Source of the DNA: Patagioenas fasciata
Taxonomy: Eukaryota
NCBI RefSeq assembly: GCF_037038585.1
Contig: NC_092556.1
Span: 514,619-578,618 of the forward strand
Direction: 5' to 3'
Length of the DNA: 64,000 nt
Made by a program: the position numbers and the translations under genes
Notes under the pieces: generated by a model
The model's input: the letters and a program-made list of their open reading frames with translations, nothing else
Databases searched by the model: none
What the model was told of the DNA's origin: nothing
Part shown: positions 19,870-27,836 of the stretch, one piece after another
How positions within the stretch are numbered: position 1 is the first letter of the stretch
Layout: each line of letters begins with the position of its first letter

Positions 19870-20200
19870 CGGGAGAACCAATGGGGGTGGAGGGGGCGGG
19901 GCGAGCGGCGCCTATGAGCCAATGGGAAGCGAGCGGGGGGGCGGGGGAAGCACCGGGGTCAACGGGGAGCGCGGCTGAGCCAATAGGAAGCGAGCGGGCG
20001 GGGCGAACCGCTCCGTGAACCAATGGGAAGCGAGTGGGCGGGGCGAGCTGGCTGTTTCACCGGGGAGCGAGTGGGCGGGGCTCGCGGCGCCGCTGAACCA
20101 ATGGGAACCGAGCGTGCGGGACGCGCGGCGCCCTGAGCCAATAGGGAGGGAGTAGGGGGGGGAGCGGCGGCGCTGAACCAATGGGGATGAAGCGGGGGGG
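19870..20200. repeat. Tandem ~45-60 bp promoter repeat, seven units of CCAAT box + GC box (gagCCAATgggaagcgagcGGGCGGGGCg)
   Basis: CCAATGGG or CCAATAGG occurs at ~19878, 19917, 19978, 20019, 20099, 20138 and 20178, each followed by gaagcgagcgggcggggcg-like sequence. The array lies immediately upstream of the INO80E ATG. Confidence 0.7.
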
Positions 20201-20238
20201 GCTCCCGGCACTTCCGTGAAGGAGCCGGAAGTGCGGCC

Positions 20239-20322
20239 ATGAACGGGGCGGGCGAGGTGGACGGCGGGGGCTACAAACGGCGCTACCGGGCCCTCAAGCG
20301 GCGCCTCAAGCTGCTGCTCTAC
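20239..20322 (+). CDS. INO80E: INO80E (INO80 complex subunit E) exon 1 (start codon)
   Basis: ATG at 20239. Encodes MNGAGEVDGGGYKRRYRALKRRLKLLLY. Donor CTCTAC|gtgagg. Matches human INO80E [27 protein letters not shown]. Confidence 0.85.
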
Positions 20323-22409: not shown

Positions 22410-22480
22410 GAGCAGGAATGCTTCCAGGACGAGCTCCGCAGGGCCCAGCGCAAACTGCTCAAGGTCTCGCGCGACAAAAG
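22410..22480 (+). CDS. INO80E: INO80E exon 2
   Basis: Acceptor gccgtttttcgccccgaaag|GAG. Encodes [23 protein letters not shown](S). Donor AAAAG|gtcccg (weak). Matches human [24 protein letters not shown]. Confidence 0.8.
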
Positions 22481-23162
22481 GTCCCGAAACCCCAGAAAAT
22501 CAGCCCAAAATGCACCCGCCCCGCACTCCTGGGTCCCCTGGGGCACTCCTGGGTCCCTTGGGGCACTCCTGGGTCCCCCCCGAACTCCTGGGTCCCTCCC
22601 CGAACTCCTGGGTCCCTCCCGAACTCCTGGGTCCCTCCCCGAACTCCTGGGTCCCTCCCGAACTCCTGGGTCCCTCAGAACTCCTGGGTCCCTTGGGGCA
22701 CTCCTGGGTCCCTCCCCGCACTCCTGGGTCCCTTGGGGCACTCCTGGGTCCCTCCCAAACTCCTGGGTCCCTCCCCGAACTCCTGGGTCCCTCCCCAAAC
22801 TCCTGGGTCCCTCCCGAACTCCTGGGTCCCTCCCCGAACTCCTGGGTCCCCCCCCGAACTCCTGGGTCCCCCCCGAACTCCTGGGTCCCTTGGGGCACTC
22901 CTGGGTCCCTCCCGAACTCCTGGGTCCCTCCCCGAACTCCTGGGTCCCTCCTGAACTCCTGGGTCCCTCCCGCACTCCTGGGTCCCTCCCGAACTCCTGG
23001 GTCCCCCCCGAACTCCTGGGTCCCCTGGGGCACTCCTGGGTCCCTCCCGAACTCCTGTGTCCCCCCCGAACTCCTGGGTCCCTCCCCGAACTCCTGGGTC
23101 CCTCCCGAACTCCTGGGTCCCTCCCGGACGCCTGGGTCCCTCACACCCCCTTTCCCCCCCAG

Positions 23163-23215
23163 TTATTTGCTGGACCGGTTGCTGCTCTATGAGAACGTGG
23201 ATGACGAGACCACAG
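23163..23215 (+). CDS. INO80E: INO80E exon 3
   Basis: Acceptor ccctttcccccccag|T. Encodes (S)YLLDRLLLYENVDDETT(G). Donor CACAG|gtaagg. Matches human SFLLDRLLQYENVDEDSS. Confidence 0.85.
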
Positions 23216-23835
23216 GTAAGGGGGAGGGGGGGCACTTATGGGGCTGGGGGGGGCACTTGGGGGTCACTATGGGGCAGCTATGGGGCACTTATGGGTCAGT
23301 TTGGGGTCACTATGGGGAAGTTGGGGTTCAACGTGGGGCACTGGGGGGGTCCCTATGGGGCAATTTGGGGTCGATTTCAGGCACTTATGGGGCTGGGGGG
23401 GACTTGGGGGTCGCTATGGGTCGCTATGGGGCAGTTATGGGTCAGTTTGGGGCCAATATGGGGAAGTTGGGGGTTAATATGGGGCACTGGGGGGGTCACT
23501 ATGAGGCAGCTATGGGTGGATTTCAGGCACTTATGGGGCTGGGGGGGACTTGGGGGTCGCTATGGGGCAGTTATGGGGCATTTTGGGGCCACTTGGGGGT
23601 CACTATGGGGAAGTGGGGGGGGTCGCTATGGGGCAATTTGGGGTCAATTTCAGGCACTTATGGGGCTGGGGGGCACTTGGGGTTCACTATGGGGCAGATA
23701 TGGGTCACTATGGGGCAGTTATGGGTCAATTGGGGGTCACCGTGGGGCAGTTGTGGGGCTGGGGAAGACACTTGTGGGTCGCTGTGGGTCACGGGGGGTT
23801 GGTCATTGGGTCCCCATTGGCTCCTCCCCCCATAG

Positions 23836-23902
23836 ATTCGGAGGCCACGGCGACGTCCGACAGCGACGGGGACGGGAACAAGGGCAGCGACGGCGGGAAG
23901 AG
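23836..23902 (+). CDS. INO80E: INO80E exon 4
   Basis: Acceptor ctcctccccccatag|AT. Encodes (D)SEATATSDSDGDGNKGSDGGK(R). Donor GAAGAG|gtgggg. Matches human DSDATASSDNSETEGTPK... Confidence 0.75.
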
Positions 23903-23904
23903 GT

Positions 23905-24600
23905 GGGGGCGGGGCCAAGATGGCCGCTGCCAGCATCCAAGATGGCTGCCGGGGGTGTGGGAGGGGTTCCAAGATGGCCGCCAGGGTTCAACATGGCCGC
24001 CCCCAGCATCCAATATGGCTGCCAAAGTCATGGGTGGGGTTCCAATATGGCCGCCAGCATCCAATATGGCCGCCCTCAGCATCCAATATGGCTGCCGGGG
24101 TGGTGGGTGGGGCTCCAATATGGCCACCCCCAACATCCAATATGGCCGCTGGGGTCATGGGAGGGGTTCCAAGATGGCCGCCATCATCCAATATGGCCGC
24201 CTTCAGTATCCAATATGGCCGCCAAGGTCATGGGCGGGGTTTCAAGATGGCTGCCAGAATCCAATATGGCCGTCTCTAGTATCCAATATGGCCGCCAGGG
24301 TCATGGGCCGGGTTTCAATATGGCTGCCATCATCCAATATGGCCGCCTTCAGTATCCAATATGGCCGCCAAGGTCATGGGCGGGGTTCCAATATGGCCGC
24401 CTCGAGTATCCAATATGGCCGCCAGAGTGGTGGGCGGGGCTCCAAGATGGCCGCCAGAATCCAATATGGCCGCCCTCAGTATCCAATATGGCTGCCGGGG
24501 TCATGGGCGGGGTTCCAATATGGCCACCAGAATCCAATATGGCCGCCCTCAGTATCCAATATGGCCGCCAGGGTGGTGGGCGTGGCTCCAAGATGGCCCC
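23905..24600. repeat. Tandem ~90-bp repeat carrying ~24 copies of a YY1-like motif CCAA(G/T)ATGGC(C/T)GCC, in INO80E intron 4
   Basis: Repeated strings include tccaagatggccgcc, tccaatatggccgcc and ttcaacatggccgcc. The YY1 core is AAnATGGCG, and this motif matches it in every position except the final base. Confidence 0.8.
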
Positions 24601-24633: not shown

Positions 24634-24691
24634 GAAGCGCAGCCCCTCCCCCCCCACATCTGCCTTCCAGGCCCCGCCCACTCCATATATG
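24634..24691 (+). CDS. INO80E: INO80E exon 5
   Basis: Acceptor ccatttccccccacag|G. Encodes (R)KRSPSPPTSAFQAPPTPYM. Donor TATATG|gtgagt. Matches human KRKRSPPLGGAPSPSSLSLPP... Confidence 0.75.
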
Positions 24692-25376
24692 GTGAGTGAT
24701 TGTGGCCCCACCCCCTTGTACCCCCCGACCAATTGCAGCTTGGGGGCGTGGCCTGGACCCCTTCCCCCTCCCATTTCCCATGCGGCTCCGCCCCCTTTAC
24801 CCCCAACCAATCCCAATGAGGGGGCGTGGCGTGGACCCCCTTCCCCCTCCCATTTCCCATGCGGCTCCGCCCCCTTTACCCCCAACCAATCCCAATGAGG
24901 GGGCGTGGCCTGCACCCCCTTCCCCCTCCCATTTCCCATGCGGCTCCGCCCCCTTTACCCCCAACCAATCCCAGCGAGGGGGCGTGGCCTGGACCCCCTT
25001 CCCCCTCCCATTTCCCATGCGGCTCCGCCCCCTTTACCCCCAACCAATCCCAGCAAGGGGGTGTGGCCTGCACCCCCTTCCCCCCCATTCCCCTGCAGCT
25101 CCGCCCCCTTTACCCCCCAACCAATCCCAGCAAGGGGGCGTGGCCTGGACCCTCTTCCCCCTCCCATTTCCCATGTGGCTCCGCCCCATTTACCCCCCAA
25201 CCAATCCCAGCAAGGGGGGTGTGGTCTGGACCCTCCCCATTCCCATGTGACTCCGCCCCCTTTACCCCCAACCAATCCCAGCTCAGGGGGGCGTGGTCTC
25301 CCCCCCACCCTCTCCATCCAATGGGAGCTGGGGGGCGTGTCCTCTGCTGACCCCACCCCCCCCATGCCCTTTCCAG

Positions 25377-25502
25377 GTGACCACGCCCCCCTTCAGCCCA
25401 TTGCCCAATGAGCTGCTGGCCCCGCCCGACGGGCCTCGCCCCCCCAGGCCCCGCCCCCCCGGCCCCGCCCGGCGCAGCCGAAGCTCCAACAGGCGCCTGC
25501 AG
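25377..25502 (+). CDS. INO80E: INO80E exon 6
   Basis: Acceptor ccatgccctttccag|GTG. Encodes VTTPPFSPLPNELLAPPDGPRPPRPRPPGPARRSRSSNRRLQ. Donor CTGCAG|gtccgg. Matches human ...[33 protein letters not shown]. Confidence 0.7.
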
Positions 25503-26554
25503 GTCCGGGGGGCGCTATGGGGCGCTATGGGGTGCTATGGGGCACTATGGGGTGCTATGGGGCGCTATGGGGCGCTATGGGGTGCTATGGGGCGCTATGG
25601 GGCGGTGTGGGGCACAGGGGGGCTGGGGTCCTCTATGGGGCCAGGGGGCACTTGGGGGGCTGGGGGGGGGGTCAATATGTGGGGTTGGGGGGGAGTTATG
25701 GGGCACTTGGGGGTCGATGTGTGGGGCTCGGGGGTCTGGGAGGGTCACTTGTGGGTCACTTATGGGTCAGTGTGTGGGTCTGGGGGGTCACTTATGGGTC
25801 TGGGAGGGTCACTTGTGGGTCACTTATGGGTCAATGTGTGGGTCGGGGGTCACTTATGGGTCTGGAGGGTCACTTATGGGTCACTTATGGGTCAACGTGT
25901 GGGTCTGGGGGGGGGGTCACTTATGGGTCTGGGAGGGTCACTTGTGGGTCACTTATGGGTCAATGTGTGGGTTTGTGGTCACTTATGGGTCTGGGAGGGT
26001 CACTTATGGGTCAACGTGTGGGTCTGGGGGGGTCACTTATGGGTCAATGTGTGGGTCCATGGGATCACTTATGGGTCTGGGAGGGTCAGTTATGGGTCTG
26101 AGAGGGTCACTTGTGGGTCAATGTGTGGGTCGGGGGTCACTTATGGGTCAAGGTGTGGGTCTGGGGGGTCTGGGAGGGTCACTTATGGGTCACTTATGGG
26201 TCAGTGTGTGGGTCGGGGGTCACTTATGGGTCTGGGAGGGTCACTTATGGGTCACTTATGGGTCAATGTGTGGGTCTGGGGTCACTTATGGGTCAATGTG
26301 TGGGTCTGGGGTCACTTATGGGTCAACGTGTGGGTCTGGGGGGGTCACTTGCGGGTGAATGTGTGGGTCGGGGATCACTTATGGGTCACCTATGGGTCGA
26401 CGTGTGGGTCTGGGGGGGTCACTTATGGGTCAATGTGTGGGTCTATGGTCACTTACGGGTCCCTTATGTCCCCCCAGCCCCCCCCCGCGCCCCCGTTCCC
26501 CCTCCCCCCGGCCCCTCCCCCGCTGCCCGGTGCCCTCCCCCGGCGGCTGCTGAG

Positions 26555-26644
26555 CCGAGGGGGGGGGAGGGGCCGGGGGGGGAGGGGAGCGGGGACGACG
26601 CCCTGGACGGGGACGACGAGCTGGTGATTGACATCCCCGAGTGA
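26555..26644 (+). CDS. INO80E: INO80E terminal coding segment (conserved C-terminus, stop TGA 26642-26644); 5' boundary ambiguous
   Basis: Encodes PRGGEGPGGEGSGDDALDGDDELVIDIPE*, matching the human C-terminus SGDDALDGDDDLVIDIPE. With acceptor gctgctgag|CCG (AG at 26553-26554) this segment is in frame with exon 6. The stronger acceptor cccttatgtccccccag| at 26476-26477 would instead start the exon at 26478, 2 nt out of frame with this C-terminus. Confidence 0.5.
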   Translation, partial: PRGGEGPGGEGSGDDALDGDDELVIDIPE

Positions 26645-26649
26645 CCTCT

Positions 26650-27310
26650 GACCTCTGACCCCGCCTGACCCCCGGAGTGGCGATGATTGACAGCCCGAGG
26701 GATCCCATGTGACTTCTGAGTGGCGATGATTGACAACCCAAGTGACCCCATGTGACCCCTGGGAGCCCACGTGACCCCAGAGCAAGGATGATTGACAGCC
26801 CAAGTGACCCCATGTGACCCCTGAGTGGCCATTGATTGACAACCCAAGTGACCCCATGTGACCCCTGGGAGCCCACGTGACCCCGGAGCAAGGATGATTG
26901 ACAGCCCAAGTGACCCCATGTGACCCCACGTGACCCCGGAGCAAGGATGATTGACAGCCCAAGTGACCCCATGTGACCCCACGTGACCCCGGAGCAAGGA
27001 TGATTGACAGCCCAAGTGACCCCATGTGACCCCACGTGACCCCGGAGCAAGGATGATTGACAACTGGAGTGACCCCATGTGACCCCTGGGACCTCACGTG
27101 ACCCCCGATTGGCCGTTGATTGACAACCCAAGTGACCCCTGGGACCTCATGACCCCATGTGACCCCGGAGTGGCGATGATTGACAGCCCAAGTGACCCCA
27201 TGTGACCCTGGAGCAAGAATGATTGACAACCCAAGTGACCCCATGTGACCCCCAAGTGGCCATTGATTGACAGCCCAAGTGACCCACGTGATTGATTGAC
27301 AACCCAAGTG
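26650..27310. repeat. ~55-60 bp tandem repeat (~11 units: gtgaccccatgtgacccc...ggagcaaggatgattgacagcccaa) inside the INO80E 3'UTR
   Basis: Each unit contains TGATTGACA(G/A). The array lies between the stop at 26644 and AATAAA at 27353. Confidence 0.8.
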
Positions 27311-27352
27311 ACCTTTGACCCCCCCCCGTGACCCCCAGGGACCCATTTGGGG

Positions 27353-27358
27353 AATAAA
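27353..27358 (+). promoter_or_regulatory. INO80E: INO80E polyadenylation signal AATAAA
   Basis: ggggAATAAAatcgacgttcag. It is the first AATAAA downstream of the INO80E stop codon, on the same strand. Confidence 0.65.
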
Positions 27359-27379
27359 ATCGACGTTCAGACCCCGCCC

Positions 27380-27770
27380 CCTTTTGACTCCGCCCCCTGA
27401 AGCCCCGCCCCCTTCAGACCCCACCCTTCGAGCCCCACCCCTTAGGCCACACCCCATTTAGACCCCACCCCCTTTAAGCTCCACCCCCCTTAGGCCCCAA
27501 CGCCTTTGGTCTCCACCCACTCCTGGCCCCGCCCCTTTAAGCCCCACCCCCGTAGGCCACGCCCCATTTAGACCCCTCCCTCTTTAAGCTCCACCCTTAG
27601 ACCCCTCCCCCTTTAAGCCCCACCCCCTCGGGCCACGCCCATGTAGGCCACACCCATTTAGACTCCACCCCCTTTAAGCCCCACCCCCTTAGGCCACGCC
27701 CCATTTAGACCCCACCCCCTTTAGACCCCCCCACCCCCCTTATCCCTCCATTTAGACCCCACCCCCTTGA
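27380..27770. repeat. ~20-bp GC-box-like tandem repeat (ccccgcccccttcagacc / ccccaccccctttaagctcc family, ~20 units) in the INO80E-MAZ convergent intergenic region
   Basis: Direct reading. Units alternate CCCCGCCCC (Sp1-type) and CCCCACCCC cores. Confidence 0.8.
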
Positions 27771-27830
27771 AGCCCCGCCCCCTCCAGGCCCCTCCCCCCC
27801 AGTGGGCGGAGCCTCGGGCGCCTCTTGCCT

Positions 27831-27836
27831 TTTATT
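27831..27836 (-). promoter_or_regulatory. MAZ: MAZ polyadenylation signal AATAAA (minus strand)
   Basis: Plus ttttattccc at 27830-27839 is gggAATAAAagg on the minus strand, ~150 nt downstream of the MAZ stop at 27987-27989. Confidence 0.6.

Follow-up and report, generated by a model that had tools for sequence, protein, structure and literature searches.

The predicted 3′ untranslated region (3′UTR) of INO80E carries a tandem array that is, with a probability of roughly 0.8, a lineage-specific minisatellite raised by local tandem duplication of the gene's own coding end. The array lies within the 64-kb window (i.e. the whole stretch of DNA that was analysed) and draws attention through repeated copies of the decamer TGATTGACAG, which a preliminary description of this DNA had read as PBX-MEIS composite sites. 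Below, the array is traced unit by unit to the last codons of INO80E, compared with the corresponding 3′ ends in other amniotes, and weighed against the other readings of its origin and role.

INO80E and its predicted 3′ end

The gene upstream of the array had been called INO80E, and this call is supported by a Pfam PF24237 match on its N-terminal exons (E = 3.9e-23), which are moreover 89% identical to those of INO80E in the parrot Lathamus discolor. INO80E is one of the GC-rich "hidden" chicken/avian genes (PMC4539667). The features of the locus are as follows:

20239–20322, 22410–22478, 23161–23216 and 23836–23903, + strand: INO80E exons, with the ATG at 20239
About 24634–24693, about 25377–25503, and 26474–26644, + strand: later INO80E exons
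25667–26468, + strand: intron 6 array (GGGTCACTTATGGGTC...), related in reverse complement to the decamer portion of the 3′UTR units
26474–26644, + strand: protein-coding portion of the terminal INO80E exon, with ...DDALDGDDELVIDIPE and then TGA (26642–26644) at its end, as located by translation and by tblastn to the turtle and goose C-termini
27353–27358, + strand: AATAAA, the sole poly(A) hexamer after the INO80E stop
27831–27836, − strand: AATAAA of a convergent C2H2 zinc-finger gene

None of the 12 common poly(A) hexamers is present from the stop codon (26642–26644) to position 27353. Because of this, the array (26681–27344) falls inside the predicted 3′UTR, and its original placement between the INO80E stop and the AATAAA at 27353–27358 holds. 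This predicted 3′UTR has a length of about 710–730 nt, of which ~40 nt lie outside the array. As expected of a 3′UTR minisatellite, tandem units in the range of 10–100 bp are found between the stop codon and the poly(A) signal.

The last coding exon further contains a 32-nt inverted repeat, in which a C-rich arm (26490–26521) and a G-rich arm (26563–26594) are 84% complementary and separated by 41 nt. Elsewhere on the minus strand of the window, C2H2 zinc-finger exons occur at ~32.2, ~35.4 and 38.5–38.9 kb (with Pfam zf-C2H2 slightly under its cut-off on these short fragments), and major-facilitator transporter exons at ~13.2 and ~14.8 kb. We take the former to be MAZ-like and the latter to be SPNS1-like. 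Both sets of exons sit in small non-repeat islands that are separated by arrays.

Motif count and unit anatomy of the array

The motif TGATTGACAR occurs 13 times in the 64-kb window, in each case on the + strand and within 26684–27302, where shuffled sequence leads one to expect 0.24 occurrences and none of 100 shuffles reaches 13. These 13 TGATTGACA(G/A) cores comprise seven exact TGATTGACAG decamers and six TGATTGACAA variants, while a 14th TGATTGACA, with T as the next nucleotide, is located at 26625 within the coding sequence (CDS), where it reads TGATTGACAT. All 14 TGATTGACA copies of the window form one phased series that begins in the CDS.

The preliminary description had reported ~11 copies in uniform units of ~55–60 bp, built on two alternative words. 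The tandem arrangement itself stands and is recovered by TRF (periods of 43, 53 and 106 bp across 26675–27285, with 73–89% matches), but the number of copies is 13, plus the 14th in the CDS. The units are likewise tandem but not uniform: when cut at the cores, they measure 43, 62, 44, 62, 53, 53, 53, 63, 60, 43, 44, 29 and 55 bp, thus ranging from 29 to 63 bp and being mostly 43, 53 or 62–63 bp long. As to the two words, GATGATTGACAGCCC is found in six units and GATGATTGACAACCC in one, but the other units begin with ATT-, GTT- or AAT-. The series is composed of the following elements:

26622–26680, + strand: unit 0, the source copy, consisting of the last seven codons (cTG GTG ATT GAC ATC CCC GAG), TGA and the first 36 nt of the 3′UTR
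26681–27344, + strand: units u1–u13, each with a TGATTGACA(G/A)CCCAAG core and then two to four TGACCCC(A/C)(T/C)G decamers; seven units with exact TGATTGACAG
26681–26891, + strand: two 105/106-bp dimers (43/44-bp plus 62-bp units) with TRF period 106, forming a higher-order layer
26892–27050, + strand: u5–u7, three identical 53-bp units (100% pairwise identity)
27290–27344, + strand: last unit u13, with a tail GTGACCTTTGACC...GTGACCCCCAGGGACCC like that of unit 0 (u0 and u13 being 75% identical)

The variation in unit length is due to the number of 10-bp TGACCCC sub-repeats, and this TGACCCC decamer family is spread over the whole window in both orientations. The unit and higher-order lengths of 43, 53, 63 and 106 bp are multiples of ~10.6 bp. 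Between the two dimers, u2 and u4 are 95% identical and u1 and u3 84%, and the u5–u7 triple would represent the latest expansion. The edge units u0 and u13 are similar in their GTGACCT(C/T)TGACC tail, and u13 looks like the ancestral 3′UTR end. The 13 copies are one event multiplied, and their excess beyond chance is as trivial as it is for any tandem repeat.

A protein-coding array was considered and rejected, because each unit holds a TGA on the + strand, with all frames being interrupted. Antisense to the array (26430–27457, minus strand), in turn, no stop codons occur and ORFs of 204–334 aa are found. A database search with the 334-aa ORF, intended to reach homologous arrays whose ORFs have been called in other assemblies, yielded 8,000 candidates and no significant homologue among them, and the long antisense frames are accordingly a by-product of sequence composition.

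The series starts with the coding end of INO80E

The core at 26625 is made up of the codons cTG GTG ATT GAC ATc, specifying L-V-I-D-I, and lies 59 bp (i.e. one unit length) upstream of the first core of the array. Unit 0, which is built around this core, can be aligned end-to-end with u9 at 82% global identity. The Smith-Waterman score of this pair amounts to 56 (z = 10.4), as dinucleotide-shuffled versions of the query reach 18.4 ± 3.6, and the highest-scoring of about 1,800 tiles elsewhere in the window reaches 35. In the multiple alignment, the coding end TGGTGATTGACATCCCCGAGTGACC...CCTGACCCCCGGAGTGG pairs with CGTTGATTGACA-ACCCAAGTGACC...TGTGACCCCGGAGTGG of u9 along the whole unit. The chance of finding such a 9-mer in phase beside the array can be estimated at ~1e-4, when scaled from the shuffle expectation. 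Because unit 0 aligns with the other units over its whole length, the array is best read as 14 units of which the real coding end is the first.

A similar relationship has been screened for in chicken by requiring a BLASTn-short match of at least 20 nt between a coding exon and its adjacent intron, with a bit score > 42.1 (i.e. above that of the shuffled control; PMC12954441). With this published criterion, the best match between the coding end and the array covered 9–17 nt and reached 22.3 bits, compared to a shuffled maximum of 24.3 and the cut-off of 42.1. It stays under the cut-off because little of the unit derives from the CDS and this stretch is interrupted by an indel. Screening all seven INO80E exons against their flanks in the published style with BLASTn-short also revealed none above the cut-off. 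What supports homology to the coding end is thus the exact 9-mer in phase, together with our own gapped alignment.

The 3′ end of INO80E in other amniotes

Seven fetched loci were checked for TGATTGACA, five of which carry INO80E and four of which reach its 3′ end (goose, turtle and two mammals). The TGATTGACA motif was found in none of the seven loci, and the array in none of the four that reach the 3′ end. A comparison of INO80E 3′UTRs among birds had been proposed at the outset, and its outcome is that goose has neither array nor motif, while the parrot contig (L001) ends before the 3′ end of the gene.

In goose (Anser cygnoides, L002 13404–13445), the coding sequence ends with GTC ATC GAC ATC CCC GAC GGG CAA TAA (...DIPDGQ). 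The TAA stop of goose INO80E falls within CAATAAA, so that there is almost no 3′UTR, and G-rich tandem arrays follow directly after it. In turtle, the gene ends with GTC ATA GAT ATC CCG GAA TAG and has a non-repetitive 3′UTR of ~130 nt, whereas in the two mammalian contigs (host DNA in metagenomes) it ends with GTG ATC GAC ATC CCG GAG TGA. Because these outgroups possess the coding end without TGATTGACA or the array, the comparison argues that the coding end is ancestral and that the array is derived from it in a lineage-specific manner. The reverse, in which the coding end would have been copied from the array, was rejected, since mammals share TGATCGACATCCCGGAGTGA and the coding end is thus older than the array. 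Moreover, with ~40 nt of the present 3′UTR lying outside the array and the goose gene being almost without one, the ancestral avian INO80E 3′UTR was probably very short.

Further copies were sought by several routes. A protein search with the C-terminal exon returned one weak turtle match and no further bird 3′ ends, an exact look-up of two ORFs of the window (the exon 1 read-through and the last-exon ORF) in public assemblies returned no record, and a metagenome scan for the unit TGATTGACARCCCAAGTGACCCC returned no matches. A degenerate metagenome scan for the coding end revealed only the two mammalian host contigs, which were used as outgroups above. As such, neither the protein and ORF searches nor the metagenome scans recovered a second copy of the array, be it from this species or from a close relative. 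A Logan contig (L004 1–1294, from SRR27537731) does not help with the 3′UTR, since it appears to be a chimeric assembly of transcripts in which spliced INO80E exons 1–4 from a different species run into unrelated AT-rich sequence.

A repeat-saturated neighbourhood

TRF arrays (score of at least 50) cover 89.8% of the 64-kb window, compared to 0.1% after shuffling, and the tandem-repeat share of the other INO80E loci amounts to 81% in parrot, 72% in goose, 26% in turtle and 0–8% in mammals. The initial remark that a tandem-repeat 3′UTR is unusual therefore does not apply to this window, which is itself 90% tandem repeat, nor to surroundings such as the parrot and goose loci. Altogether, 1,066 distinct 10-mers are present in the window in at least 13 copies. 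The GC content of the window (about 0.60), its TRF coverage of 90% and its density of G4 motifs (12.8 per kb) are consistent with a dot chromosome. Specifically in the 3′UTR array (26737–27344), all six G4 motifs are located on the template (minus) strand, so that the mRNA would be C-rich and not G4-forming.

Other parts of the locus are occupied by arrays of their own. The INO80E promoter (19874–20206) is a tandem array of eight ~40-bp copies ending just 5′ of the ATG at 20239, and in seven of these eight copies a GC box follows a CCAAT box. Intron 4 (23907–24600) contains about 27 CCAA(T/G)ATGGC(C/T)GCC units, i.e. CCAA(T/G)ATGGCCGCC, among whose words are the YY1-like AAGATGGC (seven times) and AATATGGC (20 times). 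The region between the convergent poly(A) signals (27369–27782) is taken up by a CCCCGCCCC/CCCCACCCC array with Sp/KLF-like units.

The array of intron 6 is 73–77% complementary to the 3′UTR decamers over 25–30 nt in many pairs. Because it is reverse-complementary to the 3′UTR units, the last coding exon is bracketed by inverted relatives, which might base-pair with one another in the pre-mRNA or adopt a non-B conformation as DNA.

Alternative readings of the array

The naming of TGATTGACAG as a PBX-MEIS composite site agrees with its publication as a frequent in vivo PREP1/MEIS-PBX1 decamer consensus (PMC5240567), and binding of PBX-MEIS/PREP to the seven perfect predicted decamers is chemically plausible. 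The array could thus be a functional cluster, acting as an enhancer, silencer or factor sink between the convergent genes and kept by selection whatever its origin. Such a cluster would fit the presence of seven exact matches to this in vivo PREP1-PBX1 consensus in about 600 bp, next to six TGATTGACAA and the single TGATTGACAT in the CDS, and also the invariance of the 9-nt core in all 13 units, given that variation is seen in 16 of the 31 columns around it (naive P = 0.004). However, this P value is overstated because the units are not independent, with identical and dimeric units being single events, and when an estimated three or so independent interior events are counted, the invariance of the core is not significant (P about 0.26). 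An invariant core would be expected just as well if the array were young or if its units had been converted by the coding copy, which is under protein constraint. Moreover, the motif is already accounted for by descent from the V-I-D-I codons, the sites are missing in goose, turtle and two mammals and hence not conserved, and position 10 is A in six of the 13 sites, in a G/A pattern that tracks the dimer structure and not site optimisation. Word amplification is common to all arrays of the window, as the 1,066 multiplied 10-mers indicate, and neighbouring arrays have likewise multiplied other transcription-factor words (CCAAT, YY1-like and Sp/KLF-like). The copies in INO80E match the PBX-PREP/MEIS DECA sites in sequence, yet known functional DECA sites are single or few, lie in a promoter or enhancer, and are conserved (PMC5240567), whereas the INO80E copies are tandem, coding-derived and lineage-specific candidates. 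Since the codon ancestry, the lack of the sites in other amniotes, the dimer-linked G/A pattern and the many amplified words all point the same way, the PBX-MEIS sites most likely arose as a by-product of stuttering and not as a designed regulatory array such as the preliminary description had implied. A cluster maintained by selection is improbable, and it is a shade less probable still that the decamers, though born from codons by stuttering, have since been co-opted, being occupied in vivo and retained in their core, to serve in regulation or as a factor sink between INO80E and the convergent zinc-finger gene.

At the level of RNA, the repeated 3′UTR unit might bind an RNA-binding protein or microRNAs and thereby tune the stability or translation of INO80E mRNA. 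The array should indeed be present in the mRNA, as there is no poly(A) hexamer before 27353, and an increase in 3′UTR length from some tens to about 720 nt likely affects this mRNA somehow. On the other hand, the 721-nt 3′UTR folds more weakly than its shuffles (z = +1.48), with 18 of 20 shuffles folding at least as well, and a search of Rfam 15 revealed no credible match, the best one (E = 0.48) reaching 16.1 bits where the gathering score is 45. The array is, furthermore, not kept in other amniotes, and we know of no RNA-binding-protein motif matching UGAUUGACA. The earlier suggestion of an RNA element thus gains nothing from folding or from Rfam families, and we give it as little credence as co-option. 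Alternatively, the array or its copy number could be an assembly artefact, given that GC-rich repeat regions are known to be error-prone and under-covered (PMC12954441; 10.1101/2025.10.17.683159). However, the units have diverged and are layered (dimers, an identical triple, and edge units nearest to the source) as in real minisatellites, and similar structures have been verified by raw nanopore reads in chicken PHF8 (PMC12954441). Of the readings considered in this section, an artefact seems the least likely, and very unlikely in itself.

Relation to known repeat systems

Variable number tandem repeats (VNTRs) exist in the 3′UTRs of vertebrate genes, such as the 40-bp VNTR in the 3′UTR of human SLC6A3. 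The INO80E array resembles this type in having non-coding units of tens of bp between stop codon and poly(A) signal, and in being likely variable in length. It differs in that its unit visibly stems from the gene's own last codons and stop, and in that the surrounding 64 kb consist almost entirely of arrays.

A closer relative is found in the dot chromosomes of chicken, whose highly repetitive introns have been described in terms of "sequence stuttering", including "exon stuttering" that is seeded by part of a coding exon (PMC12954441, 2026). In exon stuttering the repeats are strictly local and the introns with exon copies are highly length-variable among individuals, and the screen that uncovered it covered introns only (PMC12954441). 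The INO80E array shares with avian stuttering its local, imperfect and layered tandem expansion in blocks of tens of bp, within GC-rich and repeat-saturated surroundings, and with exon stuttering its seeding at a conserved coding edge and its copies that mix coding with adjacent non-coding sequence (PMC12954441). Specifically, the array consists of local imperfect TRF repeats whose copies contain part of the adjacent coding exon, the source being at the edge of that exon. It departs from the published cases in that its copies are situated 3′ of the stop in the terminal exon and not in an intron, in that its source is the CDS/3′UTR edge as opposed to an exon-intron border, and in that its coding-derived part is too short and gapped for the BLAST cut-off used there (PMC12954441). 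INO80E is absent from two supplementary files of that study.

The convergent neighbour of INO80E is a C2-domain gene in turtle and a zinc-finger gene in the window. In mammals, this neighbour is DOC2A. The chicken assembly of the stuttering study places DOC2A on chr38 (PMC12954441). In the telomere-to-telomere (T2T) assembly of zebra finch, tandem repeats make up > 70% of dot-chromosome introns, multiples of 10–11 bp are the commonest, and the G4 motifs of UTRs are found preferentially on the template strand (bioRxiv 10.1101/2025.10.17.683159). The INO80E array shows both the 10–11-bp periodicity of these zebra finch minisatellites and the template-strand placement of G4 motifs in a UTR.

Proposed origin by stuttering across the stop codon

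Taken as a minisatellite of coding origin, the array probably arose when a segment of ~59 bp, containing the last INO80E codons, the stop and the first bases of a formerly short 3′UTR, was duplicated locally. Such duplication, or "sequence stuttering", would have proceeded through slippage, gene conversion or unequal exchange. In the coding end, TGATTGACA would have come about when ATC changed synonymously to ATT, and in the copies the following T would have become G or A with a 1-nt deletion, giving seven exact and six near PBX-MEIS/PREP decamers as a by-product. Later rounds would then have generated the 106-bp dimers, the three identical 53-mers and the variable numbers of 10-bp TGACCCC sub-repeats. 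As a net result, the 3′UTR would have been stretched to about 710–730 nt and the poly(A) signal moved away from the stop, in an expansion that we suppose to have been neutral and to be transcribed along with the gene.

The feature is best filed as a further example of the recently described avian stuttering, here extending into a 3′UTR. Stuttering across a stop codon is a case that the published, intron-only screen could not see. It might in turn bear on the protein, as in-phase copies of the coding end adjoin the real one and unequal exchange would turn the conserved DELVIDIPE C-terminus into DELVIDSPSDPM or DELVIDNPSDPM. For the scanning of avian dot-chromosome-like sequence, the lesson is that whatever word a repeat unit contains will recur many times, so that a dense "site array" amounts to one event and not to many. 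Should the decamers have been co-opted after all, the codons of a gene would have been turned into a new cis-regulatory module by repeat instability. As it stands, the INO80E locus illustrates how perfect transcription-factor consensus sites may arise without selection.
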